Shown piece after piece: positions 34,879 to 63,947 of a stretch of DNA of 64,000 nt (position 1 is its first letter; every line of letters starts with the position of its first letter). The stretch is from a virus. A model generated the notes under the pieces. It ran no database searches. It was not told the DNA's origin and saw only the letters and a list, made by a program, of their open reading frames with translations. Location of the stretch: IMG/VR virus record IMGVR_UViG_3300028840_006907, positions 224,001 to 288,000 of that record. One strand, written 5' to 3'. The position numbers and the translations under genes were made by a program.

Positions 34879-34881
34879 TAA

Positions 34882-37173
34882 ATGGGACAGCAATCTTTCA
34901 GTACAGCCGGTTTAACTTCATTTCAAGTTCCTGTTGATATTACATCTATAACGGTAAAGTGTTGGGCTGGTGGAGCTGGTGGAGGAGCCGGGGGGACTTC
35001 TGGTGTTGGAGGAGTGGGTGGCGGTGGTGGCTATGTTCAGGGAGATATAACCGTCACTCCTTCGGAAATACTTAGTATTCATCTTGGGGGTGCTGGGAAT
35101 TCAGGAAGTTTTGGAGGAACTTCTGGTTCTGGAGGTGGTGGTGCTGGTCTATCTAGTGTCTCGCGTGGCTCAACACCTTTATTTGTAGCCGGAGCAGGTG
35201 GGGGAGGCGGTGGTGGAGACAATAGTAATCCGGCTGCTGGTGGAGCTGGTGGGGCAGGAGGTTCCTCTACCGGAGGAACTGGAGGCAGTTCTCTAAATGC
35301 CAATGGAGGAACTGGTGGAAGTCAAGTATCTGGTGGTACTGGTGGTACTGGTGGTATAGTTTCAGGTGCTGCTGGAGGTGCCCCTATTTCTGCAGCAGCT
35401 AATTTTGGTAATTGCCTTGACTTTGATGGAACAGATGAATGGGTCTCTTCAGCTAATTCTTATTCTAATCCTCAGACTTTTACAACTGAGTTATGGTTTA
35501 AAACTACCACTACTTCAGGAGGATTATTAATTGGTTTCGGAAACAGTCAAACAGGAACTTCTACCAGTTATGACAGAAGGATCTGGTTAAGTAATTCCGG
35601 AAATGTCTATTGTGGAGTTTATGCTGGATTAATTTTAGGAGTTCAGACGGTAAATTCTTCTGGTACATATAATGATGGAGAATGGCATCATGTTGCAATG
35701 GTCCATGACTCTGGAGGGTTTGAATTATTTGTTGATGGTATATCACAAGGAACAAATGCAAATCCTTCACAAGATACTTTTACAGGTTACTGGCGACTCG
35801 CAGGAACTACGGTTTGGTCGGGATGGTCTCCTGCTCCTACTAATAATTATTATGTAGGTCAAATTGATGAAGTCAGATTTTGGCAAGAAGCTCGAACAAC
35901 TTGTCAATTAATAAATAATGCAAATAAATATTTAGCTGGAACTGAGACTAATTTAGCTTTTTATTGGAAATTAAATGAATCTTCCGGTTCTACCGCAAAT
36001 GATGAAACTACCAATAATAATGATGGCACACTCCAAAATATGGAAGATGCAGACTGGGTTACTTCTAGTTGGAGTGGTAAGTGGATAGGTATTGGTACTG
36101 GAGGTGATGGTGGAGACGGTAATGATGGAGGGACTACTAGAGGATCAGAGGCTAATGGAGGTATCACTTGTGCTGGATCAGGTGGTACAGCCGATGTCGG
36201 TGCTGCTGGTTATGGTGGCGGTGGTGGCGGTGGCGCTGGTTACGGTGGAGGTGGAGGAGGCTCGGCTTCTCAAGCTTCAAATGCTGGTGGAGGTGGTGGA
36301 GGAGGTGGCTCCAGTTATATAATTGGTTCTGCTACGTCAACTACCAATACGCAAGCTTCGGGACAGAATCCTCCCAACACAAGCGACCCGGACTATACTG
36401 GTTCTGCAGGAGTTGGTGGAAATGGGGGTGCTACAAGTACTGCAGGATCAAATGGTAATAATGGTTTGATTGTTATTAGTTGGACAGAACCTCCGACATA
36501 TGTTGGGATAACATTTGTAGCGAGTAGTTCTCAAAGATTGGCATCAGTAGCAAATTTTACTCCTCCTCAAAATTGCTCCGTATCATGGTGGTTAAAACTA
36601 TCTTCGTTGAATCAGTTTGGGAGGACAGCAAGTCTAAGTGTTAATTGGGAAATAGGTCTATCTGATAATGCAGGTACTCCTACTGCTAATGGTATTATTA
36701 ATGCTATGAATAGTGGTGCTCTTTTGTATTCTTCAACAAGTCTTCAAGCTGATCTTCGTTATCATGTTGTATGTACAGCAACTTCTAGTGCCCGTCAAAT
36801 ATTTTTAAATGGTGTTCTTGATAATAGTGCTGCTTCTGGAGGGACTGCTCCTGCAGCAGGGACTCTTTATGTTGGATGTCAATATGGTGGAACTCTATAT
36901 TTTCTTGATGGGGCTATAGAGGATTTAAGGGTATATAATCGGATAATTACTGCAGAAGAAGTGGCTACAATTTATGCTTGTGAAGGAAGAGACGGTATAA
37001 CATATGGCTTAATACATCGATGGCCTATGAATGAAGGTGCAGCAGGTGTTGTAGCGAGTGGTACTGGTTCTGTAAAAGATGAGGCTACAAATCAATTGAA
37101 TTTAACTGCAACTAATAGTCCAGTTTATTCTGGATCACAATTGAATTATAGACGAAAATATAGGACTCATTAA
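34882..37173 (+). CDS. glycine-rich + LamG + shared LamG-like C-terminal domain protein, paralogue 3
   Basis: 763 aa with the same architecture as 32656-34878: FQVPVDITSITVKCWAGGAGGGAGG...GGGGYVQGDITVTPSEILSIHLGG; FTTELWFKTT, WHHVAMVH, LFVDG, GQIDEVRFWQ; LDGAIEDLRVYNRIITAEEVATIYACEGRDG. Long stretches are identical with paralogue 2 (DGTLQNMEDADWVTSSW; TSTTNTQASGQNPPNT). Confidence 0.75.
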   Translation: MGQQSFSTAGLTSFQVPVDITSITVKCWAGGAGGGAGGTSGVGGVGGGGGYVQGDITVTPSEILSIHLGGAGNSGSFGGTSGSGGGGAGLSSVSRGSTPLFVAGAGGGGGGGDNSNPAAGGAGGAGGSSTGGTGGSSLNANGGTGGSQVSGGTGGTGGIVSGAAGGAPISAAANFGNCLDFDGTDEWVSSANSYSNPQTFTTELWFKTTTTSGGLLIGFGNSQTGTSTSYDRRIWLSNSGNVYCGVYAGLILGVQTVNSSGTYNDGEWHHVAMVHDSGGFELFVDGISQGTNANPSQDTFTGYWRLAGTTVWSGWSPAPTNNYYVGQIDEVRFWQEARTTCQLINNANKYLAGTETNLAFYWKLNESSGSTANDETTNNNDGTLQNMEDADWVTSSWSGKWIGIGTGGDGGDGNDGGTTRGSEANGGITCAGSGGTADVGAAGYGGGGGGGAGYGGGGGGSASQASNAGGGGGGGGSSYIIGSATSTTNTQASGQNPPNTSDPDYTGSAGVGGNGGATSTAGSNGNNGLIVISWTEPPTYVGITFVASSSQRLASVANFTPPQNCSVSWWLKLSSLNQFGRTASLSVNWEIGLSDNAGTPTANGIINAMNSGALLYSSTSLQADLRYHVVCTATSSARQIFLNGVLDNSAASGGTAPAAGTLYVGCQYGGTLYFLDGAIEDLRVYNRIITAEEVATIYACEGRDGITYGLIHRWPMNEGAAGVVASGTGSVKDEATNQLNLTATNSPVYSGSQLNYRRKYRTH

Positions 37174-37220
37174 TTATAAAATTTACATATAAGATCTATA
37201 TAACATATAAGGAGGTTCAA

Positions 37221-37736
37221 ATGTATAAAACAGCATTAGTATGTGGAGTCTGGGACAAATTGCATGAAGGGCATAAAAATATAATTAAATATTCTATAGA
37301 AAATTCTGAATTACTGAAAATTTTTGTATTAGAAATTAATATACATGATAGACATGAAGAGCCTTTTATACCTTATGAAGAAAGAAAAAAAACAGTCGAA
37401 AATTATGTCCTTTCTTTAGGGGCAAGAGATAAGGTACAAATAATAGGAAAAAAAGATGCTACGGAAGTTATGGTATTGGATGAATTGAGAACTGTAGATT
37501 GCGCCTTTGCTTGTGCTAAAGATAAAAATCAGCAAATTTTAGAAATGATAAAAATAACTCAAGATAGAGTTGCTAAATTAGAAGGCCCTGATGGACGTAA
37601 GCCATTTGTTATGGAATGGGTAGATCCTGTGAAAAATGATGAAGGAAAAATAATCTCTTCAAGTAAATACAGGAAAAAAAGCCGTTTAGAAAAAGAAAAG
37701 AGAGTAAATTCTTCAGGTGGATATGGTCGATTTTAA
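37221..37736 (+). CDS. cytidylyltransferase-family nucleotidyltransferase
   Basis: 171 aa with AAGGAGG RBS. N-terminal ALVCGVWDKLHEGHKNIIKYS carries the (H/T)xGH signature of the cytidylyltransferase / PPAT / TagD fold. Confidence 0.6.
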   Translation: MYKTALVCGVWDKLHEGHKNIIKYSIENSELLKIFVLEINIHDRHEEPFIPYEERKKTVENYVLSLGARDKVQIIGKKDATEVMVLDELRTVDCAFACAKDKNQQILEMIKITQDRVAKLEGPDGRKPFVMEWVDPVKNDEGKIISSSKYRKKSRLEKEKRVNSSGGYGRF

Positions 37737-38959
37737 TGGCACAATATAAAGTTCGTACATCTAATGCTAACCAAGGCCAGTATATGAAAAATGCTGGCTC
37801 TCGAACTACTACTGGTCCATTACAATTTGGGAGATCTGGTAAAGGAACAGCAAATGATGTTCGAATAGCTTTAAGATGGCAACCAAATATAGATATGACT
37901 GGTAAATATATGATAGTTACTTCTGCCTATATTCGTGTTACAAGAGAGACTGAAGATACTGGCGCATTTACAGCTACAGTTAGAGTGCATAATGGTTCTG
38001 CTCCTGATTTATCTACAACTGATTTAGCTTGGGGTTATTCTGATATAGGTTATTCTCAATCATGGTCGATAGCAGATTCATGGAGTGCTGATACTGAATT
38101 TACTTCACCTGATATGAAAAGCGCAGTACAAGCTTGGTTTAATAGGAGTGCTCATTCAAGTACGGATTGGATTGGTTTCATTATTGATGATGGTGATTCT
38201 GCTGATGATGAATATAAAGGAGTCTATGATGCTGATCATTCTACTTCAAGTTATCGTCCTGAATTAGAAATAAATTATAAAATATATTCAGGAGGAGATA
38301 ATGGTGGATTATCTTTTACAGCATCGAGTTCTCAGTATTTGGAATCAGTTAGTAATATTACACCTCCTGCAACATCTTCAGTATCTTTTTGGATTTATTT
38401 AACTGAATTGAATCAATTTGGTCGAACTATTAGTCGATTTGCTTATGAAATTGGTCTATCAGATAATGCCGGATCTCCTCCTAATGGGATAGTTAATGCT
38501 ATGACTAGTGGAACTATACTTGTATCAAGTTCTCTTACAGTGAATACCCTTTATCATTGTGTTTGTACGGCCTCATCTACTGCTCGACAGATATATCTTA
38601 ATGGAGTATTGAATACTTCAGGAGGTGGTGGTACGGTATCAACAGCAGGGACTATGTGGATCGGGTCACAAGATGGTGTTGATTTTTTCCTATCTGGTCA
38701 TTTAGAAGATATACGAATTTATAATCGTATCCTTACATTAGCTGAAGTTCAAACTATTTATGCTTGCCAAGGCTCAGATAGTATTACTTATGGATTAATT
38801 CATAGATGGCTTATGAATGAGGGTCCGATAAGTTCGGTAGCAAGTGGTACTGGACTAGTAAAAGATTATGGGATAAATCAAGTAAATATGACTCCATTTA
38901 ATAGTCCAGTTTTTTTAGGAACTCAAATGAAAAATAGGAATAAGTATAGGACCCATTAG
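37736..38959 (+). CDS. virion-associated protein with shared LamG-like C-terminal domain, paralogue 4
   Basis: 407 aa; start overlaps the upstream stop (TAATG). Distinct N-terminal beta-rich domain ending SSYRPELEINYKI. C-terminus LSGHLEDIRIYNRILTLAEVQTIYACQGSDSITYGLIHRWLMNE. Confidence 0.7.
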   Translation: MAQYKVRTSNANQGQYMKNAGSRTTTGPLQFGRSGKGTANDVRIALRWQPNIDMTGKYMIVTSAYIRVTRETEDTGAFTATVRVHNGSAPDLSTTDLAWGYSDIGYSQSWSIADSWSADTEFTSPDMKSAVQAWFNRSAHSSTDWIGFIIDDGDSADDEYKGVYDADHSTSSYRPELEINYKIYSGGDNGGLSFTASSSQYLESVSNITPPATSSVSFWIYLTELNQFGRTISRFAYEIGLSDNAGSPPNGIVNAMTSGTILVSSSLTVNTLYHCVCTASSTARQIYLNGVLNTSGGGGTVSTAGTMWIGSQDGVDFFLSGHLEDIRIYNRILTLAEVQTIYACQGSDSITYGLIHRWLMNEGPISSVASGTGLVKDYGINQVNMTPFNSPVFLGTQMKNRNKYRTH

Positions 38960-42782: not shown

Positions 42783-43141
42783 TAACTGAAATTGATGATG
42801 ATAGTAAAGACATAAAGATAAAATTAGGAAATTTATTTGAAAAATATGAAAATCTTTATCGGGAAGGGAATAGACAGTTTAGAACAGAGAGAATAGCTTC
42901 TGCTGGGTCAATGGATGGTCTGGAAGAATTTCGTCGTTTGATGCTTATTGTAAAAAGAAATAAGGATGTAGTGGCCTCGCTAATGCGGGGTATAGCTAAT
43001 TTTAGGTCTATTTCAAATTTTAAGTTTGTAGAAGAGGAAGTAGAAATTTCAAAACCGAAACCAAAGAAAACAAAGAAAGCTACTCCTGAAAAAGTGATCA
43101 TACCTATACCAATAGTAGCGGAGGAATTTAATGGCGAATAA
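42761..43141 (+). CDS. hypothetical protein
   Basis: 126-aa ORF overlapping the portal start by 11 nt. Has a Lys-rich C-terminal segment. Confidence 0.6.
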   Translation: MPDFNKLITEIDDDSKDIKIKLGNLFEKYENLYREGNRQFRTERIASAGSMDGLEEFRRLMLIVKRNKDVVASLMRGIANFRSISNFKFVEEEVEISKPKPKKTKKATPEKVIIPIPIVAEEFNGE

Positions 43142-46100
43142 ACGAATAAGAGTTGTAACAGCGCAAGATAATGTACCGAAACGGGCAACTCGAAGAAAAG
43201 TAGTCAGCAGGGATACTAATCCTAAGGTGACAAATCTTACAGATAATGAAAAAAGAGCCAGACGGATTGCTACAACAACATCTATGGGATTCGGTCTTCG
43301 TTCTGCAAGTGATATTGTAAATAGCAGTGAAGCAAACTTTTACTCCCCCCAATTAAGTACTGATTTTCTTGAGAAGCCACAGAATCTACGTGAACGTAGA
43401 GCCTTTTATAGATTCTTTTATAATACGAATGAAATTATCGGACAATCTATTGATATTCATTCCACATTACCTCTTTCGAAATTGCGTCTCGTTCCTCCAA
43501 AAGGGAGAAATAAACATCAGAACAATTACGTTTTTAAGTTTTTCCAAAAGATGTGTGATGAAATGAAGCTCTTTAAAACACTTATTGAGATAACTCATGA
43601 ATACTTTCTTTTTGGTAATTGCTTGGCTAAGTATGCCGAGGTAAAGACTCCCTTTGGGTATAAGGAAGCGAAAGAGATAGAAGTAGGTGACTTCTTATTG
43701 ACAGATAAAGGGCGCTATAGGAAAGTCTTGAAGAAATGTGTAAGACCTTCTGAAAATGTTCTCAAAGTTAAATGTTGGAAAGATTTTAGGGAATTACCTG
43801 TTTCTGAAGAACATCCTATAGAAATATTAAAAGATGATGGCTTTGTTTTTGCCCAAGCTGAGGAATTGTCCTTAAACGACTATATCCGAGTTACTTGGCC
43901 TACTGAAATATCTGATAAAGAATATGTTCCTTTTGAATTTACAGATAAATATACAAAAGTGGAAAATGGCTATGAGTTAAAATTTGAAGTACTGCGTACC
44001 AGAAATCCTCATGCTTTCCGTGCTCGAAAAGAATTATTATCATGGCTAAGTTCTTTATCTAAACCAGTAATAAGGACAAGAAAACAGTTGTCCGAAGATT
44101 TTGATGTTCCTCTTTCCACATTGAATAATGTGATTTATAAACTTGGGAAAGAACTTGATGTAAAATTTCATGAAAGAATAGGTGCTTCAGGTTTTCAAAA
44201 AGGTTCTCAAGTAAAATGGTTTCCTATTGAGGACATAGAAGTCACGGATTCCTATAGTATTCATAAAACCCTATTTTTAGATGCTATTGATGGAATTGAT
44301 ATCAATAATGATTTTGCGTATCTTGCAGGATATTGGTTGGGAGATGGCACTTTGGCTCGTGATTCGCAAAGAGGGACATGGGGTCGTGGTTTGTGGCAAA
44401 TTTCAGTAGACCAGGAATTTGAAGGTTTAAATCGGATACGAAGTATTTTACATAATTTTTTTGGTTCTGGTAATGTGATAGAATGGAATTCGGGTAATCT
44501 ACTTTATTTAAAAGTTATCTCAAATCCTGCTTTTTTAGAATGGTGGGCTGAAAATTTTGGTGAAACTTCTTTCGGTAGAAATTATAAAAGAATTCCTGAA
44601 TGGTTTATAAAACTTCCTATGGAAAAACTTCAAAATTTTCTGGCAGGTTTGATAGATTCAGATGGTTGTATTAGTGTGAGTGGTGAAAATCAGAAATGTA
44701 TAACGAATATCTCAATGGCGTCTCGAAATATAATGGATTCTGTAAGAGACATAACTTTAAAATGTGGTGTTGTAGTGAATTACAACGAAGGAACTGAAAG
44801 AGAAGTTACTTTACCACAGGGAGACAAATGTTTCTCAAAAAAAATGTATACTGTAACAGCCTCAGATGAAGAATCCTGTAAAATTTTAACTCAATATGCC
44901 ACAAAAAGTATACCTGTAGATGCCCAATTCTCAGAAATGGGAAGATATTGGATAAGAACTGATTCAGGTTTAGCCTTCAAAATTAAGTCTATAAAAACAG
45001 AAGAATATAATGATTTAGTATACAATTTTGAAGTAGAAGAAGACCATACCTATCAAGTAGCTGGTTTTAGTACTCATAATTGCTTTATTTTTGCTGAAGA
45101 AGATGATTGGAAGGAAGGTATAACTACCGAAAACATAGGACAGAAAAAAGAAGAGGCCAAACAACGTTCCCAGCTCCTTAAAGATAAATTTGATATTAAG
45201 GATAAGAATCCTCTTTATAAAGGATGGAAAAAGCTTCTTATACTTCCTCCTGACCAGGTTAGGGTTCGTAAACTTCCTCTTACTGATGAGGTAGCAATTG
45301 AATATATGCCTGATCCGGAAACTCGAAAATTTCTGACTTCTGATATACCAATTGATCCTACAGATCCTACAAGAAGGTTAGACTATTCTATTTCTAATGA
45401 ATTGCGGGAAAAAGTACGTCAAAGTGGGGTTATACCTTTGGATACCGATCCTTATACAGGTTCACATGTTTTTCATCTGGCAAGAAAGAAATCACAATAT
45501 GAGCCTCTTGGTGTATCTATCGTTGAGCGTTGCATAAATACTCTTGTTTTAATGGATAAATTGAGACAGGCTCAGACATCGATTGCATCGCGTCACATGA
45601 CTCCTATGCGTGTTGTATGGGCTGAGGACTTAAATTCGGATGATGTCGATAATTTACGTGAGCAGGTTGATCTTGCTTTAGTAGATCCTGATTTCAGTAT
45701 TATTGCCAATTATGAAATTCACTGGGAAGAAATGGGATCGAATGGCCGTTTATTAGATGTAGAAGCGGAAATGGAAAGCTCATTAAATAGATTATTTGCC
45801 GGATTAGGTGTGACTCGGGAAATGTTAACTGGTGAAGGTACTTATACAGGGAGTAGAGTTTCATTAGAAATAATGAATACTATGTATCTTCTTTTCCGTG
45901 AAGTGCTCCAGGATTATATAGAAAATACATTGTTTAAGCCTATAGCTAAAAAGAAGGGTTTTATAGAATATGATGAATATGGTAATGAGACACTTCTTTA
46001 TCCGAAAATCAGTTTTACCCGATTGGCTATTAGAGATAATGAGCAATATTTTGACGCAGCCTTTCAGTTATATCAGAAGGGTTCAATTTCCATCGATCTT

Positions 46101-46484
46101 ATTTTGGATATTCTTAATATTGATCCTGATGCGACCAGGGAAAAGATTGAACAAGATCTGTTTACTGTTAATGATAGTCTTTTCAATGAAATGATGAGAA
46201 ACCTTTATACAAATGTGGCTGCCCCACTTGTAGAGGAAACTAATGTTACTGAGAAATTGGCTAAATATCTTCATTTAGAAAAGACTGAAAAACCTGAGGC
46301 CACAGAAGGTGAATCTCGATTTAGTTCTGTTAATGGAAAGGATTACAGGAAAAAGCTTTCAAAAGTCATGAAATACTTTATTGATAATCCTGAAAAATTA
46401 AATTCCATTTTTGCAAAGAATGGACAGTTAAAACCTAAACAAGCGAGAAATAATCAATGCGTTGTCGCTCAATCCCGGAATTAA
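43131..46484 (+). CDS. portal (head-tail connector) protein interrupted by an intein
   Basis: GGAGGA RBS; 1,117 aa, or 630 aa once residues 164-650 (the intein) are removed. Extein blocks resemble T7-gp8-type connectors from memory: LFKTLIEITHEYFLFGN|CFIFAEE versus LFEALKQLVVAGNVLLYLPE, and YEPLGVSIVERCINTLVLMDKLRQAQ versus GESYGRSYIEEYLGDLRSLENLQEA. It heads the capsid gene block. Confidence 0.75.
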   Translation: MANKRIRVVTAQDNVPKRATRRKVVSRDTNPKVTNLTDNEKRARRIATTTSMGFGLRSASDIVNSSEANFYSPQLSTDFLEKPQNLRERRAFYRFFYNTNEIIGQSIDIHSTLPLSKLRLVPPKGRNKHQNNYVFKFFQKMCDEMKLFKTLIEITHEYFLFGNCLAKYAEVKTPFGYKEAKEIEVGDFLLTDKGRYRKVLKKCVRPSENVLKVKCWKDFRELPVSEEHPIEILKDDGFVFAQAEELSLNDYIRVTWPTEISDKEYVPFEFTDKYTKVENGYELKFEVLRTRNPHAFRARKELLSWLSSLSKPVIRTRKQLSEDFDVPLSTLNNVIYKLGKELDVKFHERIGASGFQKGSQVKWFPIEDIEVTDSYSIHKTLFLDAIDGIDINNDFAYLAGYWLGDGTLARDSQRGTWGRGLWQISVDQEFEGLNRIRSILHNFFGSGNVIEWNSGNLLYLKVISNPAFLEWWAENFGETSFGRNYKRIPEWFIKLPMEKLQNFLAGLIDSDGCISVSGENQKCITNISMASRNIMDSVRDITLKCGVVVNYNEGTEREVTLPQGDKCFSKKMYTVTASDEESCKILTQYATKSIPVDAQFSEMGRYWIRTDSGLAFKIKSIKTEEYNDLVYNFEVEEDHTYQVAGFSTHNCFIFAEEDDWKEGITTENIGQKKEEAKQRSQLLKDKFDIKDKNPLYKGWKKLLILPPDQVRVRKLPLTDEVAIEYMPDPETRKFLTSDIPIDPTDPTRRLDYSISNELREKVRQSGVIPLDTDPYTGSHVFHLARKKSQYEPLGVSIVERCINTLVLMDKLRQAQTSIASRHMTPMRVVWAEDLNSDDVDNLREQVDLALVDPDFSIIANYEIHWEEMGSNGRLLDVEAEMESSLNRLFAGLGVTREMLTGEGTYTGSRVSLEIMNTMYLLFREVLQDYIENTLFKPIAKKKGFIEYDEYGNETLLYPKISFTRLAIRDNEQYFDAAFQLYQKGSISIDLILDILNIDPDATREKIEQDLFTVNDSLFNEMMRNLYTNVAAPLVEETNVTEKLAKYLHLEKTEKPEATEGESRFSSVNGKDYRKKLSKVMKYFIDNPEKLNSIFAKNGQLKPKQARNNQCVVAQSRN
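43620..45080 (+). mobile_element. intein with LAGLIDADG homing-endonuclease domain (487 aa) in the portal gene
   Basis: Begins with Cys (CLAKYAEVKT...VGDFLL). Block B is SEEHPIEI. Two LAGLIDADG motifs: LAGYWLGDGTLA and LAGLIDSDGCIS. Ends VYNFEVEEDHTYQVAGFSTHN, followed by the +1 Cys (CFIF). In frame, 1,461 nt. Confidence 0.9.
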
Positions 46485-49420: not shown

Positions 49421-50989
49421 ATGGCAATGCTAAAATACGGCTCGGCTGTTATAATCGATTCTGAAGTAAGCACTGATCAGTGGTCTAAGAGTGTTTGTTG
49501 CGGTAATAAAGGTAAACATTCTTGTGGTGAAGGTAAATGCCGGGTCAAGATTGCTAAAAATGTATTTGCTAAATATACTCCTGAGAAATACTTATTGAGC
49601 CATTGTACGATTATAGCTGCAGTTGATACTGAATTAGCTAATCCTTCTGATCCTAAAAGTGATTATTATATCCATCCTAATTTTTCCAAATATGTAAATA
49701 ATAATGGTGATGCATGGTCAAAGCAGATGCTTGCTTCATGTTACCGTTCTTTTATAGGTTCCCATAATTACTTGGAACATGTACAAATACCCGAACTCAG
49801 TAAGGGGAGGGTAATTGATGCTATTCTGAGAGAAGTCCCTATAGGACGAGATAAACAGGGTAAAGAGTTAACAACCTATTATGTTGATATTCTTGTTGCT
49901 ACTGAGAGAAAGCATAAACAGTTAATAGCTGATATTCAATCAAAGAAGCTTAATTCTCTTAGTATGGGATGTAAAATAGCTTATAGCATATGTACTAAAT
50001 GTGGTAAAAAGGCAGTAGATGAAACAGAGGCTTGTCAGCATATTCGTTTTGAAAAGAACAATATGTTTTATGATAATAATGGTGTTCAACGTAAGGTAGC
50101 TGAATTGTGTGGCCATTATTCTGAGCCTGAGAGTGTTACTTTCATCGATGCTTCATGGGTAAAAAATCCTGCATTTACTGGTGCTGTAATTCGAAATATC
50201 GTTAATCCACCAGAAAACATCTTGGCTAAAATTGAGGAAGCTAGTAAAAAAGAAAGTTATCTGATTCAAGAAGATGATTTTCTTAAGGCTGCTCATAAAA
50301 TAGCCCAGGATCCTCCAGCAGAAGAAGAACCTCCTGCAGAGGAAGAGACTGCTCCTGATACTGAGGCACCAGAAGCTCCTCCTGAAGAAGCTACTCCAGC
50401 CGATGAAGGTGGTGCTGTTGAAGAGCCTCCTGCCGAGTTACCTGAGGTAGATCAGAATAATGTCAAGACTTGGAAAAATGAGGTAAAGAAAAAGGTCCTT
50501 CAAGAATTGGGTGATGAATTAGTTGAAGAGATGACAAAAGAAGATGATATGGGACCTCGTGAATTAGAAACTTTGGATGATAGTTTAATTCAACCAACCG
50601 CATCTCAAGCATTAAAGCGTATGTGGGTATTAAAGGAAGGTTGGAATAAATTCCTGAAGGAAACGACAAATGGTTTAAGTAAAGATAATCATGATCGGTT
50701 AAAATTCGGTGCTTTCATAATGTTGAATAGCAATGATCCTAAAGTTTTATCTCATTATGGTTATAACCGTAGGGATTTTTTAGCAGTGATGTCTTACATA
50801 GATCAATTTTTTAAGAATCGTTTACCAGTAAGAGTGAAGAAAGCAGTAGCTAAGCTCAATGGTACGAAGGATTTATCATTAAAAGATACTGTACATTCTT
50901 TACAAAAGCTTTCGGGAAAAAGGCTTGCTGAAAAAGAAATTAAGAAGTCTTTAGTGTGGTTAAAATTAATGGATTTGTACAAAGAATAA
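49421..50989 (+). CDS. head-module protein, possible prohead protease fused to an acidic linker and C-terminal domain
   Basis: 522 aa with AAGGA RBS. The N-terminal ~250 aa has SHNYLEH and KKLNSLSMGC blocks, reminiscent of HK97-type prohead protease His and Ser blocks (weak, from memory). It also has a CxxC...C..H cluster (CTKCGKKAVDETEACQH), then a PAEEEPPAEEETAPDTEAPEAPPEE linker. Confidence 0.4.
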   Translation: MAMLKYGSAVIIDSEVSTDQWSKSVCCGNKGKHSCGEGKCRVKIAKNVFAKYTPEKYLLSHCTIIAAVDTELANPSDPKSDYYIHPNFSKYVNNNGDAWSKQMLASCYRSFIGSHNYLEHVQIPELSKGRVIDAILREVPIGRDKQGKELTTYYVDILVATERKHKQLIADIQSKKLNSLSMGCKIAYSICTKCGKKAVDETEACQHIRFEKNNMFYDNNGVQRKVAELCGHYSEPESVTFIDASWVKNPAFTGAVIRNIVNPPENILAKIEEASKKESYLIQEDDFLKAAHKIAQDPPAEEEPPAEEETAPDTEAPEAPPEEATPADEGGAVEEPPAELPEVDQNNVKTWKNEVKKKVLQELGDELVEEMTKEDDMGPRELETLDDSLIQPTASQALKRMWVLKEGWNKFLKETTNGLSKDNHDRLKFGAFIMLNSNDPKVLSHYGYNRRDFLAVMSYIDQFFKNRLPVRVKKAVAKLNGTKDLSLKDTVHSLQKLSGKRLAEKEIKKSLVWLKLMDLYKE

Positions 50990-52564: not shown

Positions 52565-53437
52565 ATGGCTGAAATTAGCAATCAAGTAAAACAAGAAATT
52601 ATTGCTGAGTATATTAAAACTGCCGGTGGACGTGCGAAACTCGCTGCGTCAATGACTCAGCCTTTACGTCTTAGGAGAGACTACACCAGTGTAGGTCGTA
52701 AGACTTTCTTGGTAGAACAGCTCCCTGACGGTGCATTACCAATTTATGACAAAGATCCTAATGTCACAGCATATGTGATTGGTGAAGAAGGTGCCAACAT
52801 TTTGGCTATCACCAAACCTCGCCGTGTCATTTTTCCTTTGTTTGAAATTGCATCCAATCCGGAAATTCCGTTAACTCAAATCAAAGAACGTCGTTTCGAT
52901 CTCATCGAACGTGCTCAAGACCTTGCTAAATCAGAAATTCAGGCTGAAGAAGACACACGTGTTTTTGAAGTTCTGGATGCTGTAGCAACAAATGGTTTTG
53001 ATAACATCGGTGCAACGAATGCAGATATCCCTGCAACTGCTCCTCTTACACCTTCAGACCTCGCTGATGCTTTTGCACTAGTAGAGCGCCATGATCTGCG
53101 TGTAGCAAGAGTATTTGCCAATGCACTGGATTACAGTGACATTCGTAAGTGGGGACGTGATGTTCTTGATATCGAGAGTCAGGCAACATTACTTAAAACT
53201 GGTCTTATGGCAACCGTTTGGGGAGCCCAGATCATAGTTTCAAGAAAAGTTCCTGTAGGATACATCTATGTATGTGCAGAACCTGAATTCTTTGGCCGGA
53301 TACCTGTCCGTACAGAGCTTACAGTTCTCTCTGCTGATGATCCACGTAACCGTACAATCGGATTTTCATGTTTTGAAAATCTTGGTATTGGTTGCCACAA
53401 TCCTCTCGGCTTGGATCGTGTCGTACTTTCTCGATAA
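52565..53437 (+). CDS. major capsid protein (HK97-fold type)
   Basis: 290 aa with GGGAGGTGA RBS. Biased, GC-richer codon usage and a strong terminator just downstream. Position after the scaffold, and size and sequence style typical of short HK97/encapsulin-like shell proteins (no delta domain). Confidence 0.7.
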   Translation: MAEISNQVKQEIIAEYIKTAGGRAKLAASMTQPLRLRRDYTSVGRKTFLVEQLPDGALPIYDKDPNVTAYVIGEEGANILAITKPRRVIFPLFEIASNPEIPLTQIKERRFDLIERAQDLAKSEIQAEEDTRVFEVLDAVATNGFDNIGATNADIPATAPLTPSDLADAFALVERHDLRVARVFANALDYSDIRKWGRDVLDIESQATLLKTGLMATVWGAQIIVSRKVPVGYIYVCAEPEFFGRIPVRTELTVLSADDPRNRTIGFSCFENLGIGCHNPLGLDRVVLSR

Positions 53438-53892: not shown

Positions 53893-54028
53893 GCTAAAAA
53901 AATTTGTAATTATTCTTCATTTAAAACGTTTTGATTTAAAAGAAGTTATCATATTTTATGGTAACTTTTTTTCATTTGTTTAAAAAATTTTGCTGTTCGT
54001 TTCCCTTCTAAACCTTGTATTAATATGT

Positions 54029-55063
54029 ATGGGAAAGAAATGCAAAGATAAGCACTGTTTTAATGATGCTGAAATAAAAGGTTATTGTGTAAGGCATTAT
54101 TTTAGCCTACCTAGATGTGAGTATCCTGGGTGTCCGAATATTACTCTTGTTAAAAACGGCCTCTGTAAAAAACACTCTGAATTAGATCCAAAAGACATAC
54201 CTAATTATAAACCGAAAAGAAGACAGGAATCGGTTAAAAGGGAAATTAAGTTTCCTAAAAATTGGAATCATTTTTCTTTGGAACAGAAAAAAATCCTTCT
54301 TAATAAGGAAACGAAGTCTAAATTAATAATATATATCTTAAAAAAGGATCAAAGTTTTGATGTAAAGAATGCTTGTAAAAGGAGGCTTCTGGAATTAGGG
54401 TGTGAAATACCAAAAGATTTAACGTATAAATGTAAAGTCCCTGGTTGTGATAATGGTCCAAGTTCGTTAAATCATTATACTAGTGGATTTTGCCAAACTC
54501 ATTATCAGCAATATCTAAAAGGAATAATAGATAAAGACGGTAAATCAATCAGGGATTTGGTAGATGTAGGGAAACACAATGCTAATATATCTCCTGAAAG
54601 GGCTATATTATCTAAATATAATACTTTAATTAAAGGCATACACCATATCAGGAAAGAATTGCGAAATCTGAGAGATATGTCCTTTGACATGGATTATAAA
54701 TTTAATTTCTTTCCGCAATTAGGGTTTGTTGAAGACAGTTTAAAATTTATTTATAGTCCCCATTTTATTCTGAAGAATACATCGTTTTTGAAAAACACTA
54801 CATTAAAGGAGATCTTGGGAGAGAAAGAAGAACACGCACAGGTGATGTTGAAATTAGATGGCAATGAATATAAGGGGGAATTGATTCAGGGAGATGAATC
54901 AAAAATATTCATTACTGATAAAATAGATAAGAAAGGTTCAGTAGTTCTTTTTTTGAGAGGTATAGAAGATTTTACAGAATATCCTTTTGAATGCAAAGCT
55001 TATGATAAGGAAACTAACATAGTACAGAATATACGAATAGAGGAAATTCGTGAAGATAAGTAG
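54029..55063 (+). CDS. Cys/His zinc-finger repeat protein
   Basis: The ATG at 54029 is preferred over the TTG at 53990 (neither has a clear RBS). Three repeats of C-x2-5-C-x8-13-C-x2-H: KKCKDKHCFNDAEIKGYCVRHY; CEYPGCPNITLVKNGLCKKH; CKVPGCDNGPSSLNHYTSGFCQTHY. Confidence 0.6.
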   Translation: MGKKCKDKHCFNDAEIKGYCVRHYFSLPRCEYPGCPNITLVKNGLCKKHSELDPKDIPNYKPKRRQESVKREIKFPKNWNHFSLEQKKILLNKETKSKLIIYILKKDQSFDVKNACKRRLLELGCEIPKDLTYKCKVPGCDNGPSSLNHYTSGFCQTHYQQYLKGIIDKDGKSIRDLVDVGKHNANISPERAILSKYNTLIKGIHHIRKELRNLRDMSFDMDYKFNFFPQLGFVEDSLKFIYSPHFILKNTSFLKNTTLKEILGEKEEHAQVMLKLDGNEYKGELIQGDESKIFITDKIDKKGSVVLFLRGIEDFTEYPFECKAYDKETNIVQNIRIEEIREDK

Positions 55064-55249: not shown

Positions 55250-55459
55250 TTACCACTTATTGTAATTTCTGCCATATGAATTATTTCTATGGTTTTGATT
55301 GCTTCCATTCCTATCATCTTTTTCGGCTTTTCTTTTTTTCCTACAATCTGGACATCTTACTGGATCGCTGAAACCTTTTTGATTAAAGAAATCCTGTTCA
55401 CCGGCTGTGAAAGTAAAATTATTACCACAATCTCTGCAAGCTATCTGTCTGTCAGACAT
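55250..55459 (-). CDS. zinc-ribbon protein (CxxC...CxxC)
   Basis: 69 aa with AAGGAG RBS. CRDCGNNFTFTAGEQDFFNQKGFSDPVRCPDCRKKRK matches the small 'probable zinc-ribbon' family pattern C-x2-CG-x-F-x5-EQ...P-x-C-x2-CR. Confidence 0.7.
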   Translation of the reverse strand: MSDRQIACRDCGNNFTFTAGEQDFFNQKGFSDPVRCPDCRKKRKAEKDDRNGSNQNHRNNSYGRNYNKW

Positions 55460-55473
55460 ATTTTCTCCTTTGG

Positions 55474-56361
55474 TTATTCCTCTAATTTTTCTACAATCGA
55501 TTTCAATTTATTAATATGTTCTTGTTCTTCTTGTATTTTTTCTTCCCATAGATCAGAATCTTTAAGTGAGGTAATAGTCCGGTCTATAAGATTTACGAGA
55601 ACACTCGGTTCTAATGCATCCAGTTCCCAGCTTTCTTCTCCAAATTTTATAATATATGATTGATATCGGGAATCAGTAGTTTTGGCAGGATTGGGAGGAG
55701 GGCTAAATTCCTCTATTTGATTAAAGTTCAGAGCGATACGTTTTACTTCCATTCCACCCATAAATAATTCTAATCGATCAGTTATGTCCCTAGTCATATC
55801 GATCCCAGATGGATCATGATCGCCTAGATGGATGACAATAGGTATCTGTGATTTACCTTTAAATTTCATTGCATGTCTTCTGAATCTGCGACCTGCTGAC
55901 CACATTTCACTTTGAGAAGTATAACCTCTACATGAAAAATATGGCACATCATGTTGATTACATATCCTGTCTATAACTCCGACAAGAGCATCTTTTTCTA
56001 TCCAGACTTCGGGACGATATATTTGGTTTTCCCATTTATCGATTTCATATTGTTCAATACAAGTTTCGATAATTTGAGCTGGGCTGTCCCAATGAGATAA
56101 CTGTTGTAATTCTCTTGTTCTATCTTCAAGTCTATCCCAATCTACTAATCCAGCAAGTCGAGCATCATTGATAATAGATCCCAATCTTTTATACTCTGAT
56201 TGTTTATTAGCAATAAGATCTCGGGAGACAAACTGGTAGTATAATTGACGAAGAGTAAGTTTAAATCCTTGCCCTCTATATTCTTCGATGATATTATTAG
56301 CTTGATCTATTATAGTTAAGCTAGAACTTGCGAAATTTTTCTTGATATATGCTATTTTCAT
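55474..56361 (-). CDS. Spo11 / topoisomerase VI-A-like protein (catalytic-Tyr motif + TOPRIM)
   Basis: 295 aa. LTLRQLYYQFVSR matches the (T/S)-x-R-[DEQ]-[IL]-Y-Y tyrosine motif. IVIHLGDHDPSGIDM matches the TOPRIM D-x-D-P-x-G motif. Start overlaps the upstream stop (ATGA). Confidence 0.6.
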   Translation of the reverse strand: MKIAYIKKNFASSSLTIIDQANNIIEEYRGQGFKLTLRQLYYQFVSRDLIANKQSEYKRLGSIINDARLAGLVDWDRLEDRTRELQQLSHWDSPAQIIETCIEQYEIDKWENQIYRPEVWIEKDALVGVIDRICNQHDVPYFSCRGYTSQSEMWSAGRRFRRHAMKFKGKSQIPIVIHLGDHDPSGIDMTRDITDRLELFMGGMEVKRIALNFNQIEEFSPPPNPAKTTDSRYQSYIIKFGEESWELDALEPSVLVNLIDRTITSLKDSDLWEEKIQEEQEHINKLKSIVEKLEE

Positions 56362-57038
56362 TGGGAGATAATATTTATTGTAGTTGGGTATTGGTTTTTT
56401 ACTATGAATTCTGCTTCTGCTTCATTTAAAGCTTCTACTGAAACAGTTTTATTATGAATGATACTTTTTTTATTATAATAAAATTCAATATTCATTTGAA
56501 ATTTTCGTTTCTTTGGTGGGGTAAAATCCTGTTGTATATCTATAAAAAAATTTTGTGGGCCTAAAATAGAAGGACCTATAAGTTTTTCAGTAGTTTCCTT
56601 TTTTATACTAATTATTTCTTTTGGAGAAAATTGGTCTTTTATTTTTTTAATAGCGTCTTCGATATCTTCAGCAAAAATATTAATTGTTGTTGGGGTTTCG
56701 AATTCTTTTGTTTCTCCTAATATTTTATTCTGATAAAAGAGTATCATTTGAACTTCAAATCGTTGATGAGTTTTATACGGCTTATTAAAGTTTTCGATTA
56801 TTCTTTTTTCAAGTGAAGCATAATCAAATTCAAATGTATTAGGACCATAATCCATTCGGCAATGGTTAGGCCATAGAGGTTGTGATTCTGGAGAATGGTG
56901 TTCAGTATATGGATTGGAGCTTTTTGGTTCACCTTTAAGTTCTGGTCTATAAAAATCTGTCCAGTCTGTCAATTGCCCAGTTTTAATAAGAAGTTTTAAA
57001 TATGCTGGATCTATTCTTTTGTATTTATGATCTTCCAT
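56358..57038 (-). CDS. hypothetical protein
   Basis: Start moved to the ATG at 57038 (AAGGA 5 nt upstream); the track start at 57086 lacks an RBS. 226 aa; no motif recognised. Confidence 0.55.
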   Translation of the reverse strand: MEDHKYKRIDPAYLKLLIKTGQLTDWTDFYRPELKGEPKSSNPYTEHHSPESQPLWPNHCRMDYGPNTFEFDYASLEKRIIENFNKPYKTHQRFEVQMILFYQNKILGETKEFETPTTINIFAEDIEDAIKKIKDQFSPKEIISIKKETTEKLIGPSILGPQNFFIDIQQDFTPPKKRKFQMNIEFYYNKKSIIHNKTVSVEALNEAEAEFIVKNQYPTTINIISQ

Positions 57039-57373
57039 AATTTTCCTTAAAAAAGATGTTTGAATTATAACTAAAATATAATTCAAACATCAACAAATTT
57101 TATGTAGAAATAAATTGTATGGGGAGAATCCCACAATATCTAAGTATACTAAAAAGTTTAGACAAAGACAAAGAAAAAAACTAATTTGAAGAAATAAAAT
57201 ACTATATTAAGTAAGAAATATACCAAAATAGCCCAAAATATACCAAAAGTTTTTGCTTATTTCATCTAAGTCTAATTTTTTGAAGTATTTGGAATAAAAA
57301 TAATATAATTTATGATTTATTATGGTTTTTCTTATTAAGTAGATCGTGTATCTAATTTTGAAAGGAGTTGCCT

Positions 57374-60607: not shown

Positions 60608-61783
60608 ATGATTCCAGAAAATAATTCTCTATTAGATTTGACAGGTGAAAAATTTGGAGACTGGAAAGTTATTTCTCGTGCTTCAAATATTAAAGGCCAT
60701 ACCAGATGGCTTTGTGTCTGTAATTGTGGTAAAAAAGTTCCTGTTTATACCTCAAGTTTAAGGTCAGGAAAATCAACTAGTTGTGGGCATAAGAAAAGAA
60801 ATTTCATAGATTTATCAGGTAAAAGATTTGGTAAGTTATATGTAATTGGTGAGACAACAAAAAACCCTTATACCTATGCCTTAAGATATCGTTCCAAAAA
60901 TAAAGGAAAATGTTGGGAATGTTTATGTGATTGTGGAAATAAATGTATTGTAACTTCTAGGAATTTGTTATCGGGTAATACTAAAAGTTGTGGTTGTTTA
61001 GGGATTTTTTCTGATCCCACTAAAGGTTCTAAAAAGGCTCTTTTTAGAAAATATAAAAGAAGTGCAAAAATAAGAGACCATTCTTTTAATATATCTTTTG
61101 ATCAATTTTTAGTTATGATAGATCAAGAGTGCTTTTATTGTGGAAAAAGTCCTTCTCAAACTTTTAAAGGTAATAGAGAAGATTTTCTTTATAATGGTAT
61201 TGATAGATTAGAGAGTAATAGAGGTTATGAAATAGGTAACATAGTTACTTGTTGTAAAGAATGTAATTATTTAAAATGGACAAAAAGTATTAACGATTTT
61301 TTAATATGGCTAAAAATGTGTTATAATCATTTAAATCTTGAGTTCACTGACTCCCTTTTAACTATCCAAATAAATTCAAATGAAGTGGATATTCAAAATA
61401 ATGAAAAATATAATCTAAGAAAAGATGATCCTTGTTATTACTCTAAGAATACGTTTTATAATGTTTATAAAAATGTTTGTGGTAAGAAAAGAGGGTTAAT
61501 TTTTGAATTGAGTTTTGAGGAATTCTTTTCTATTAGTCAAAGGAAATGTTTTTATTGTGGTATAGAACCTAATAAGCTCTTTAAAAAGGGTTCAAGTAAA
61601 GGATTCTTTTATAATGGTCTTGATAGGATAAATAATGACATGGGTTATATCAAAGATAATATTGTTACTTGTTGTTCAATTTGCAATGAATCTAAGATGA
61701 ATTTAGATCAAAAAATTTTTATTAATAGAATCAAAAAATGCTATGGATATTTAAAGAAATATTATTTAAAAAAATTTTTTTGA
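60608..61783 (+). CDS. HNH-type endonuclease-like protein with duplicated modules
   Basis: 391 aa. Two N-terminal Cys-rich repeats (WLCVCNCGKK...STSCGH; WECLCDCGNK...TKSCGC). Two HNH-like modules (CFYCG...YNGIDRLESNRGYEIGNIVTCCKECNYLK; CFYCG...YNGLDRINNDMGYIKDNIVTCCSICNESK). Confidence 0.65.
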   Translation: MIPENNSLLDLTGEKFGDWKVISRASNIKGHTRWLCVCNCGKKVPVYTSSLRSGKSTSCGHKKRNFIDLSGKRFGKLYVIGETTKNPYTYALRYRSKNKGKCWECLCDCGNKCIVTSRNLLSGNTKSCGCLGIFSDPTKGSKKALFRKYKRSAKIRDHSFNISFDQFLVMIDQECFYCGKSPSQTFKGNREDFLYNGIDRLESNRGYEIGNIVTCCKECNYLKWTKSINDFLIWLKMCYNHLNLEFTDSLLTIQINSNEVDIQNNEKYNLRKDDPCYYSKNTFYNVYKNVCGKKRGLIFELSFEEFFSISQRKCFYCGIEPNKLFKKGSSKGFFYNGLDRINNDMGYIKDNIVTCCSICNESKMNLDQKIFINRIKKCYGYLKKYYLKKFF

Positions 61784-61865: not shown

Positions 61866-63947
61866 ATGAAACCAACAATTTCTCTTGTAATGGTAGTCTA
61901 TAATGTCAGTAAGACACTTGATAGATGTCTTAAAGGTTTTAGTCAGTGTTCGGATGAAATAGTAGTTGTTATAGATAATAAAACAACGGATAATAGTGAA
62001 GAAATTGCTCGAAAATATACCGATAAAATTTATCATTTCGATTGGATAGATGACTTTTCTGCCGCGAGAAATTTCTCTTTTGATAAGTGCACATGTGATT
62101 TTATCCACTGGTGCGATGGTGATGATTACATTCTTCCTGAAGATATAAAAATGATAAATGATCTAGATCTTACTGATTGGGATATGGTTGTTATGGATTA
62201 TGTCTATGCTCAGGATGAGTTTGGAAATGATAAATCGGTTGTCCCCAGAGAGAGAATTATAAGAAGATCTCTGGGATTGAAATGGGAGGGTGAAATACAT
62301 GAGTGTATTTTACTTCAAGGAAGAGTAAAACATACCCATATCCGAACTTATCATGATAAACAGCATGGGACTTCTGAACGTAATCTTGCCATATTAGAAA
62401 GAATTACTGAGAAAAATCCTAGTTCAAGAAATCTCTATTATCTCGGTAAAGAATATTATGATATGGGTAGAATTGATGAGGCAATTAATTATCTTTTGAA
62501 ATTTCTTGATTGTCCTGATGCCTTTTGGGAAAATGCTTATCAGGCTCATTGTAAATTGGCTATGGCTTATTTACAGAAAAAAGATGAGACTAGATTTAAA
62601 AAGCATATTTTTGAATCGATTAAGATGGAAGACCGTCAGGCAGAACCTATATATTTTCTCGCTTTATATTATATGAATAAAGGTCAATGGGATAGAGCTA
62701 TTCAGTGGTTTGAAGTATGTGCTCATATGGAGCATCCTGCAGATCTTCTAGGTGCTCATTTACCAGAATATTATACATGGTTACCTAATTTAAATCTTTG
62801 TGTTTGTTATAATGCTATTGGTGAAATTGAGAAAGCATACGAATGTAATGAAAAAGTTTTGAAATACCGTTCAAAAGATCCTCGTGCTGTCAGTAATAGA
62901 GAAATTCTTAAAAATGCTTTAAACTCAAAAAAGAAGAAAGAAGATGGTCAAGGTAAAAAACTGAATCTCGGTTGTGGTGGTAAACCTGTAGAGGGTTTTG
63001 TCAGTGTTGATATATTTAAAAGTCCCAAAATTGATGAAGTTTTTGATATGGGTGATATTCCGTATAAAGATAATACTATAGGAGCTATTTATAGTGAGCA
63101 TGCTTTAGAACATGTTTCTTTTGAACGAGTAGAAGAAGTTCTTAAAGAATGGTTTCGAGTTTTACAACCAGGGGGAGAACTTTTCCTTTATATGCCTGAT
63201 TTTGAAAATTGTTGTAAAAGTTATATAAATGCTCCGATTGACCATCCTCATTTTATGAATACTAAAGCTTGGTTTAAATATACTGTCTATGGAATTCAAA
63301 AGAGTCAGGGCGGGGAACCAGATGAAGCCCAGTTCCATCTTAGTGGCTTTTCAAAAGAGGAGATAAAAATAGTATTAGAACGGAATGGTTTTGTTATTGA
63401 TAAAGTAGAAAATTATGGTGGGGAAGGTCAGAAGCCTGATTATGGAACTCCTTCTATGGAAATCCATGCCCGAAAGCCTGAAGTAAAAAAGGAAATAATA
63501 CCTGTCAAGAAAGAGTCTGTGAAAGTGGTAGAGAAACCGAAACCTGTGAAAAAGGATTCGGGTATAAAGGTAGCCTGGATCGGGACTGAGAATTGGGTAG
63601 CTGCTCAGACAAGAATCAGAATATTAAATGTGCATCAATGGTTAAATGACCATGGTATAGAATCGGTGGTAACAAATAACTGCAAGGATGTAATCACGCA
63701 AGATTTTGATGTAGCCATTGTCGGAAAGAGATTTGATGAAGAAATTTATAATGGTGTCAAGGAATTGAAGAAGTCCAATAAAATAGTCTATTGCGATTTA
63801 TGTGAGGATGTTGTTAATTGGGCCTGGGTAAATGAGATAATGGTTGAATGTGATAAAGTTATCTGTTGTTCTAATACTCTTGCTGAGAGGGTGAAGCCAG
63901 TGAATCCTAATGTTGTAGTTATTGAAGATGCCTACGAGATGGTATAA
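61866..63947 (+). CDS. multidomain glycan-modifying enzyme (GT2, TPR, SAM-methyltransferase, C-terminal GT-like domain)
   Basis: 693 aa. GT2 motifs ISLVMVVYNVSKTLDRCL...IVVVIDNKTTDNS and WCDGDD. TPR-like LYYLGKEYYDMGRIDEAINYLLKFL. Methyltransferase motifs KLNLGCGGKPVEGFVSVD and LQPGGELFLYMPD. The GT2-TPR part is collinear with 19016-21643. Confidence 0.75.
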   Translation: MKPTISLVMVVYNVSKTLDRCLKGFSQCSDEIVVVIDNKTTDNSEEIARKYTDKIYHFDWIDDFSAARNFSFDKCTCDFIHWCDGDDYILPEDIKMINDLDLTDWDMVVMDYVYAQDEFGNDKSVVPRERIIRRSLGLKWEGEIHECILLQGRVKHTHIRTYHDKQHGTSERNLAILERITEKNPSSRNLYYLGKEYYDMGRIDEAINYLLKFLDCPDAFWENAYQAHCKLAMAYLQKKDETRFKKHIFESIKMEDRQAEPIYFLALYYMNKGQWDRAIQWFEVCAHMEHPADLLGAHLPEYYTWLPNLNLCVCYNAIGEIEKAYECNEKVLKYRSKDPRAVSNREILKNALNSKKKKEDGQGKKLNLGCGGKPVEGFVSVDIFKSPKIDEVFDMGDIPYKDNTIGAIYSEHALEHVSFERVEEVLKEWFRVLQPGGELFLYMPDFENCCKSYINAPIDHPHFMNTKAWFKYTVYGIQKSQGGEPDEAQFHLSGFSKEEIKIVLERNGFVIDKVENYGGEGQKPDYGTPSMEIHARKPEVKKEIIPVKKESVKVVEKPKPVKKDSGIKVAWIGTENWVAAQTRIRILNVHQWLNDHGIESVVTNNCKDVITQDFDVAIVGKRFDEEIYNGVKELKKSNKIVYCDLCEDVVNWAWVNEIMVECDKVICCSNTLAERVKPVNPNVVVIEDAYEMV

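Follow-up and report, generated by a model that had tools for sequence, protein, structure and literature searches.

A window of 64,000 nucleotides of phage DNA (IMG/VR virus record IMGVR_UViG_3300028840_006907, positions 224,001 to 288,000) carries on its minus strand, at 55474..56361, a gene with an ATG start that codes for 295 amino acids (aa) plus a stop codon, and its product is almost certainly a Topo Mini-A, a typical member of a published and very widespread family. The name was given by Takahashi, Da Cunha, Krupovic, Mayer, Forterre and Gadelle (NAR Genom Bioinform 2019/2020) to stand-alone homologues, of about 300 aa, of the topoisomerase A subunit found in phages and proviruses (PMC7671362). 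The same work describes Mini-A as a distant subfamily, recognised by RxxY/F-Y in a truncated 5Y-CAP, by a glutamate and DxDxxG in Toprim, by the lack of a B subunit and by a C-terminal T2BI box, xWELDAL, which is stated to be enough to tell Mini-A from Topo VI and Topo VIII (PMC7671362). An initial annotation, made from the sequence alone, had described here a stand-alone Top6A/Spo11-like protein of a phage; the open reading frame (ORF) is present with both of the motifs it reported, and the identification was right, with PHROGs, fold and motifs in agreement. The novelty it implied is not supported, since the family is published (PMC7671362) and PHROGs as well as several GenBank records already say "DNA topoisomerase". 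As an overall explanation we consider it moderately probable that this Topo Mini-A has a Top6A-like mechanism, inferred from its residues and fold, and serves DNA transactions of the phage.

In sequence and architecture the protein agrees with the family definition at every point that could be checked. Its 295 aa contain, in the predicted model, only a winged-helix (5Y-CAP) and a Toprim domain. The winged-helix domain, a truncated 5Y-CAP, covers residues ~1-105 (56047..56361, on the minus strand like all features of the gene; boundaries from the model's secondary structure) and includes LTLRQLYYQ at residues 35-43 (56233-56259), in which R38-Q-L-Y41-Y42 provides the RxxY/F-Y motif, with the clasp arginine R38 at 56248-56250, Y41 at 56239-56241 and the predicted catalytic Y42 at 56236-56238. 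The Toprim domain (residues ~113-251; 55609..56025) supplies first E122, followed by K123 (55993-55998), and then D181-H-D183-P-S-G186, which with the preceding G180 occupies 55804-55824 inside the acidic cluster IVIHLGDHDPSGIDM (residues 175-189; 55795-55839). Toward the end of this domain stands the T2BI box S244-W-E-L-D-A-L250 (W245 to L250 at 55612-55629), and the remaining residues, 252-295 (55477..55608), form a C-terminal helical hairpin, possibly a dimerisation or regulatory element. The viral carrier is evident from the terminase, portal, protease and major head protein genes of the same window. Thus at the protein level there is no difference from Topo Mini-A, with which it shares a length of ~300 aa, truncated 5Y-CAP plus Toprim, RxxYY, E and DxDxxG, xWELDAL, absence of a B subunit and viral carriage; the setting alone differs, namely a phage of 389-470 kb, an inverted three-gene cassette beside head genes, and two lineage-specific small neighbours.

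The family assignment is also borne out by searches with the whole protein, whose scores cannot be put down to chance. The PHROGs family phrog_6247, "DNA topoisomerase", matched residues 1-292 with an E-value of 9.5e-111. All of the at least 8000 candidates scored in a database of 5.8 billion proteins were significant, the best 120 of them at 59-100% identity, and the family comprises at least 8000 clusters at 90% identity in that database. By tblastn, 82 isolated phages carry Mini-A, with hosts including Pseudomonas, Salmonella, Xylella, Xanthomonas, Stenotrophomonas, Brevundimonas, Roseobacter, Flavobacterium, Microbacterium, Pseudanabaena and others, and at least 577 confirmed stretches in IMG/VR contain it. 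Several copies of isolated phages are annotated "DNA topoisomerase" or "DNA topoisomerase VI" in GenBank, and an archaeal gene annotated "Topo Mini-A" by its depositors aligns over 99% of the length at 30-32% identity (E 2e-27); with proteins annotated as members of the Mini-A family the window protein shares 30-54% identity. Single-protein searches of Pfam, NCBIfam and PDB sequences gave no match, and no Pfam Top6A/Spo11 family was matched at E <= 1. Neither Pfam nor NCBIfam contains the family, so that copies from metagenomes are for the most part still annotated as hypothetical, and Topo Mini-A (type IIB topoisomerase A-like) is the label that the gene should bear in annotation. To the question of function the present copy itself adds little, as it is typical in sequence and comes from an uncultured phage, while copies just as good exist in cultured phages of Pseudomonas, Salmonella, Xylella and Pseudanabaena.

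The tyrosine motif and the Toprim cluster singled out in the initial annotation hold up among homologues. In an alignment of 54 homologues R38, Y42, E122, K123, D181, D183, G186 and W245-L250 are invariant, and among nine phage homologues down to 20% identity the same is true of R38, Y42, E122, K123, G180, D181, D183, P184, G186 and E246, the full WELDAL box being lost solely in the most distant branch, that of Cellulophaga. Archaeal and Streptomyces copies retain the same residue set. In the C-terminal hairpin, P252 and W272 are the sole invariant positions of the 54-homologue alignment. A further family-specific stretch, PPPNPAKTTDSR (residues 221-232; 55666-55701), follows the pattern PPPNPAKxTDSR, which is invariant or nearly so across Mini-A (P221, P222, P223, N224, K227, D230 and R232 are invariant in the 54) and finds no mention in the main text of the family-defining paper; it may contact DNA. 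One close relative (P0003 of locus L087, 1763-3010, 415 aa) is 120 residues longer than usual and has 'YGNESWELD' twice, at residues 238 and 361, either by internal duplication of ~123 residues of the C-terminal Toprim region or as an assembly artefact.

The predicted structure leads to the same relatives. In the AlphaFold2 model, with a predicted local distance difference test (pLDDT) of 85.3 and a predicted template modelling score (pTM) of 0.77, the N-terminal domain consists of helices 12-30, 37-46 and 54-69 and a short wing, with R38 and Y42 on helix 37-46; a Toprim-type alpha/beta domain comes after the winged helix, and then the hairpin, of which both helices (252-266 and 269-294) have a pLDDT of 89-97. 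A Foldseek comparison with the PDB, a check that had been proposed together with the initial annotation, returned Methanosarcina mazei Top6A (9o0g_C) as the top match and the sole one at E <= 0.001, and confirmed the arrangement of 5Y-CAP and Toprim; the A chain of 9o0g came second (E 1.0e-3), and both chains had a probability of 0.99 over 293-308 alignment columns. The global TM-score of these matches is low (0.31-0.34), which we would put down to the two domains being turned differently against each other. No informative full-length match came from the BFVD viral structure library. HMMER profiles built from the 54 close or the 9 divergent homologues found no Top6A among PDB sequences, giving spurious sulfatase and aminotransferase matches at E >= 0.02, and therefore the link with Top6A rests on the fold, the equivalence of motifs and the published analysis; this failure is a caveat on the link and at the same time agrees with Mini-A being a distant subfamily.

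Among the known systems, Top6A of archaeal and plant topoisomerase VI (PDB 1d3y, 2zbk, 2q2e, 9o0g) is the best structural match and has in common with the window protein the two-domain architecture, the Toprim E/DxD triad, the tyrosine four residues after a conserved arginine, and the T2BI glutamate that clasps this arginine. In contrast to Top6A, Mini-A is ~100 residues shorter and is without the N-terminal part of 5Y-CAP that binds Top6B (41 residues precede its tyrosine, against ~100 in Top6A, where it is Y103 in Methanocaldococcus jannaschii and Y106 in M. mazei), has no Top6B gene nearby, where Top6A and Spo11 are paired with a B or B-like gene, lies out of reach of Pfam and HMMER profiles, and shows SWELDAL instead of R/KxExxA/S, a box in which glutamate and alanine are kept while serine replaces the basic residue. 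Spo11 is eukaryotic and larger, keeps the interface for a B-like partner and needs many accessory proteins in vivo, and no direct sequence similarity between it and Mini-A was detectable. Topo VIII is encoded by mobile elements, as is Mini-A, and has a B-like half (Bergerat ATPase and transducer) and an A-like half in one polypeptide or two split subunits, with the box RVELNAM; the window protein, by comparison, has 295 aa, no ATPase region and the box SWELDAL.

The way in which Mini-A might act can be drawn from its well-studied relatives. In M. mazei Top6A the residues concerned are Y106, the Toprim triad E202/D254/D256 and the salt bridge R102-E342, an "electrostatic clasp" that keeps the tyrosine off the metal site, so that the E342Q mutant hyper-cleaves (PMC13040014), and in the M. 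jannaschii protein the T2BI glutamate E340 contacts R99 and Y103 across the dimer interface (PMC7671362). Their counterparts in the window protein are R38 and Y42, at the same +4 spacing, E122, D181/D183, and E246 within the T2BI box. Mouse SPO11, even without a B-like partner, cuts DNA once it is dimeric, stays on the 5' ends and can reseal nicks (PMC11922746). Since the Top6A counterparts are kept and SPO11 alone cuts as a dimer, we infer that two Mini-A copies would form a Top6A-like dimer with hybrid active sites, each of which would combine Y42 from one subunit with the Mg2+ site of its partner (E122, D181, D183). Such a dimer would attack the DNA backbone by Mg2+-dependent transesterification and become joined to it by a 5'-phosphotyrosyl covalent link, and the product would be a nick or a staggered double-strand break, resealable in principle. 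No ATP should be needed, because there is no B subunit, and the pair R38-E246, which is invariant, matches R102-E342 of the Top6A clasp, so that cleavage would probably be gated and not constitutive. On this analysis, covalent tyrosine-mediated DNA cleavage by Mini-A is probable. The work on SPO11 and Top6A offers both an assay design and a prediction, namely that Y42F would be inactive and E246Q hyper-cleaving. A literature search found no report on the biochemistry or genetics of Mini-A; a review of December 2024 calls its role unexplored, and the proposed roles are hypotheses in the literature also (PMC11894792).

The conservation also bears on whether the protein cleaves DNA at all. It is hardly credible that Mini-A is a catalytically silent DNA-binding protein, as could be thought from its winged-helix domain and from a Microbacterium phage homologue annotated 'DNA binding protein' (SEA-PHAGES record), for the invariance of tyrosine, metal-binding triad and clasp pair down to 20% identity is hard to explain without catalysis. 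Another proposal is that of an offensive or defensive nuclease, by which Mini-A would cut host, plasmid or competing-phage DNA through JetD/MksG-like or Spo11-like breaks. The analogy with JetD of the Wadjet system, drawn in the initial annotation, fails as a matter of membership: PADLOC gave no JetD/MksG match, no SMC-like or jetABC-like neighbours are present (no SMC-type partner gene is found among the 29 genes within +-10 kb or among the listed Pfam matches of the window ORFs), and MksG, a partner of an SMC-like complex, lacks a tyrosine for catalysis in the domain equivalent to 5Y-CAP (PMC10123090), whereas in Mini-A Y42 and the R38/E246 clasp are invariant. The only PADLOC hit, to AbiEi (E 0.027, residues 52-109), is non-significant and was dismissed as winged-helix similarity. 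Invariant tyrosine and clasp point to controlled, reversible transesterification over hydrolytic degradation, and a single-turnover covalent enzyme is ill-suited to degrading DNA, so that the nuclease role appears unlikely.

As for a partner, the 29 genes called within +-10 kb of Mini-A have no recorded family of the GHKL/Top6B type, just as the initial annotation had noted that no Top6B-like ATPase gene lies nearby, and none occurs among the matches listed for the window (25 of 43 Pfam families; 47 window ORFs). BLASTP clustering of the +-4 genes around Mini-A at 72 loci found no recurrent neighbour, no family being present in more than 4 loci, and with Pfam on 135 immediate neighbours and PHROGs on 143 larger ones no family exceeded 4 proteins, which reproduces the published finding that no "Mini-B" exists. 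It could still be supposed that Mini-A is a true type IIB topoisomerase whose unrecognised ATPase partner lies in another part of the 389-470 kb genome or comes from the host: Top6A as a rule requires Top6B, the DNA examined is 64 kb of a genome, and Takahashi et al. leave open a pairing with a virus- or host-encoded protein. Given the lack of a nearby GHKL gene and of a recurrent neighbour, and with an adjoining 226-aa protein that is not an ATPase, this seems very improbable.

The neighbours that do carry annotation belong to DNA metabolism, such as ParB-like, HNH, helicase, primase, polymerase, RusA, methyltransferase and ligase proteins, and in isolated phages Mini-A sits among genes for ligase, RecA-like, RecB-like, helicase, primase/helicase, thymidylate synthase and nucleotide modification. 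From this genomic context in other phages, a role in phage replication or recombination may be put forward tentatively, and the most likely use of a Mini-A is in the phage's own DNA transactions, that is, the starting or processing of replication or recombination intermediates, and not in the destruction of host DNA. A more specific idea is that Mini-A initiates replication by nicking a specific origin and priming rolling-circle or sigma replication, as was proposed for the skuldviruses of Asgard archaea, all of which encode Mini-A and no other candidate replication protein (10.1101/2021.07.29.453957). In its chemistry a tyrosine transesterase that becomes covalently linked to a 5' end is similar to HUH initiators, and in archaeal elements of 8.8 kb Mini-A is among the very few recognisable genes. 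However, the proposal for skuldviruses, the only one published, is explicitly speculative by its authors' own account (10.1101/2021.07.29.453957), those tailed phages that have Mini-A usually possess genes for primase, helicase and polymerase as well, and neither a partner nor a DNA element beside the gene is conserved across the family; beside the present gene there is a single hairpin (57055-57091), no other origin-like repeats having been looked for. An initiator is accordingly quite unlikely in our estimate.

It is also conceivable, as a long shot, that Mini-A is a virus or plasmid 'Spo11' and not a topoisomerase, i.e. a gated enzyme that makes DNA ends and remains covalently on their 5' side, and that in the huge-phage lineage it is controlled by two co-expressed small proteins. 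Its purpose would then be the start of recombination-dependent replication, or the making and protection of linear-replicon ends, and the DpnD/PcfM-like and treble-clef zinc-finger proteins encoded beside it would be viral counterparts of the Spo11 accessory factors, controlling dimerisation or cleavage. The idea of linear-replicon ends comes from Streptomyces plasmids, on which the bias of Mini-A-like genes to record ends hints at it. PLSDB has such genes, 21-28% identical and with an intact catalytic set and WEVEAL box, on 37 plasmids of Streptomyces and 2 of Kitasatospora. Their median relative distance from the nearest record end is 0.129 against an expected 0.25, and 18 of 38 copies lie in the outer 12.5% of the record (binomial p 0.002, Kolmogorov-Smirnov p 6e-4, statistics that ignore kinship and topology). 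For example, the gene is at 531-1394 of 45,805 in NZ_CP029542.1 and 1.6 kb from the end of 33,509 in NZ_CP101652.1, and in some plasmid records the gene is present twice, perhaps within terminal inverted repeats.

Another feature of the surroundings concerns genes for nucleotide or DNA modification, which were seen within a few kb of Mini-A in all five annotated isolated phages inspected: aGPT-Pplase2, radical-SAM and PLP enzymes in Pam3, a kinase and MazG in Sano, thyX in PaMx25 (Queuovirinae), PAPS reductase and nucleoside deoxyribosyltransferase in SPN19, and GTP cyclohydrolase I and QueF in Cellulophaga phi38:2. This proximity may reflect an association with phages of hypermodified DNA or mere shared placement in a DNA-metabolism module; at 61 IMG/VR loci modification genes are not recurrent neighbours of Mini-A.

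Within the window, Mini-A is the middle one of three minus-strand genes that form a short cassette, opposite in strand to nearly all surrounding genes. The gene upstream (56358..57038, minus strand) codes for 226 aa from the ATG at 57038, or 242 aa from an upstream TTG, and its TGA overlaps the ATG of Mini-A as ATGA at 56358-56361. Its product has a disordered N-terminus and two small beta-beta-alpha-beta modules like DpnD/PcfM, at residues 92-147 (56598-56765; pLDDT 60-70) and 175-226 (56361-56516; pLDDT ~88); Pfam PF14207 (DpnD/PcfM) was matched in two stretches with E 1.7e-6, and no ATPase family of Pfam was matched. The AlphaFold2 model of this protein is poor (pLDDT 54.8 overall, below 50 outside the two modules), too poor for a fold search. 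The gene downstream (55250..55459, minus strand) codes for a zf_Tbcl treble-clef zinc-finger protein of 69 aa (PF13451, E 5.7e-18). Whereas AAAGGAG provides the zinc-finger gene with its own ribosome-binding site, Mini-A itself lacks a Shine-Dalgarno sequence, and hence translation of Mini-A here probably depends on the upstream 226-aa gene; in this huge-phage lineage Mini-A would thus be co-translated with the two-module DpnD/PcfM-like protein, the zinc-finger protein following downstream.

The initial annotation had seen in the 226-aa gene a coupled partner and had suggested an analysis of co-occurrence. The ATGA overlap is real, but the gene is not a conserved partner: it recurs only in a 4.2-kb contig (L088), which holds the closest relative for which context is available, its Mini-A being 79% identical. 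There a 253-aa homologue (44% identity over 174 aa, E 9e-39) likewise precedes Mini-A with an overlap of 4 nt, a zf_Tbcl gene in the same position (63% identity) comes after Mini-A, and the flanking genes on the opposite strand are common to both loci, so the likeness is one of shared ancestry within a single phage lineage and not an independent co-occurrence. No homologue of the 226-aa protein was found at 84 other Mini-A loci, either by tblastn or with a two-sequence hidden Markov model against 14,115 six-frame ORFs. A word-index search for its relatives returned the protein itself alone, and an exhaustive phmmer search of 1.84 billion representative proteins gave five matches (four relatives), three of which share merely a ~55-aa module. 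The 226-aa gene is a lineage-restricted neighbour, not a general partner of Mini-A, and it and the zinc-finger protein are at most lineage-specific accessories.

The AAGGA ribosome-binding site of the 226-aa gene is immediately preceded by an inverted repeat (57055..57091, minus strand) that has perfectly paired 15-bp arms, a loop of 7 nt and TTTTTT after it. This repeat overlaps a promoter-like site TTGATG-18-TATAAT and might serve the cassette as an operator or attenuator; the L088 contig has unrelated AT-rich hairpins upstream of its cassette. The cassette genes match the rest of the phage in GC content at third codon positions (GC3), by which a recent foreign insertion was ruled out. A plus-strand ORF of 124 aa (55289-55663), which overlaps the 3' end of Mini-A and is antisense to conserved coding sequence, is best read as a shadow ORF.

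The cassette adjoins the head genes of the phage in inverted orientation. The window encodes a large terminase (1144-3036), a portal of 1117 aa (43131-46484, plus strand) interrupted by an intein with a LAGLIDADG homing-endonuclease domain, a prohead protease (49421-50989) and a major head protein (52565-53437; phrog_2522, E 3.5e-53), as well as virion structural proteins and a helicase. Contigs of 388,651 bp and up to 469,617 bp encode an identical Mini-A protein, and therefore the phage, which comes from JGI metagenome 3300017963, is a huge one. Flanking the cassette are a cysteine-rich protein of 357 aa with a weak HNH match (53990-55063, plus strand) and a 391-aa protein (60608-61783, plus strand) with two HNH/endonuclease VII-like regions (phrog_374, E 6.9e-29; phrog_1035, E 1.7e-28). 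On the plus strand at 3040-10053, 22251-31487 and 31499-38959 are large ORFs, including two giant ones of 2337 and 3078 aa; the collagen triple-helix repeat is matched by two window proteins (best E 6e-225) and Laminin_G_3 by four, and these giant, collagen and Laminin_G_3 proteins are probably fibre or decoration proteins. Large fusion proteins with glycosyltransferase, methyltransferase and TPR parts (61866-63947 and 19016-21643, both plus strand, and one further ORF), together with ThiF-family and cytidylyltransferase-like proteins also in the window, suggest that glycan or nucleotide-sugar chemistry is encoded by the phage. A single tRNA-Leu gene with the anticodon TAG lies at 17956-18032 on the plus strand.
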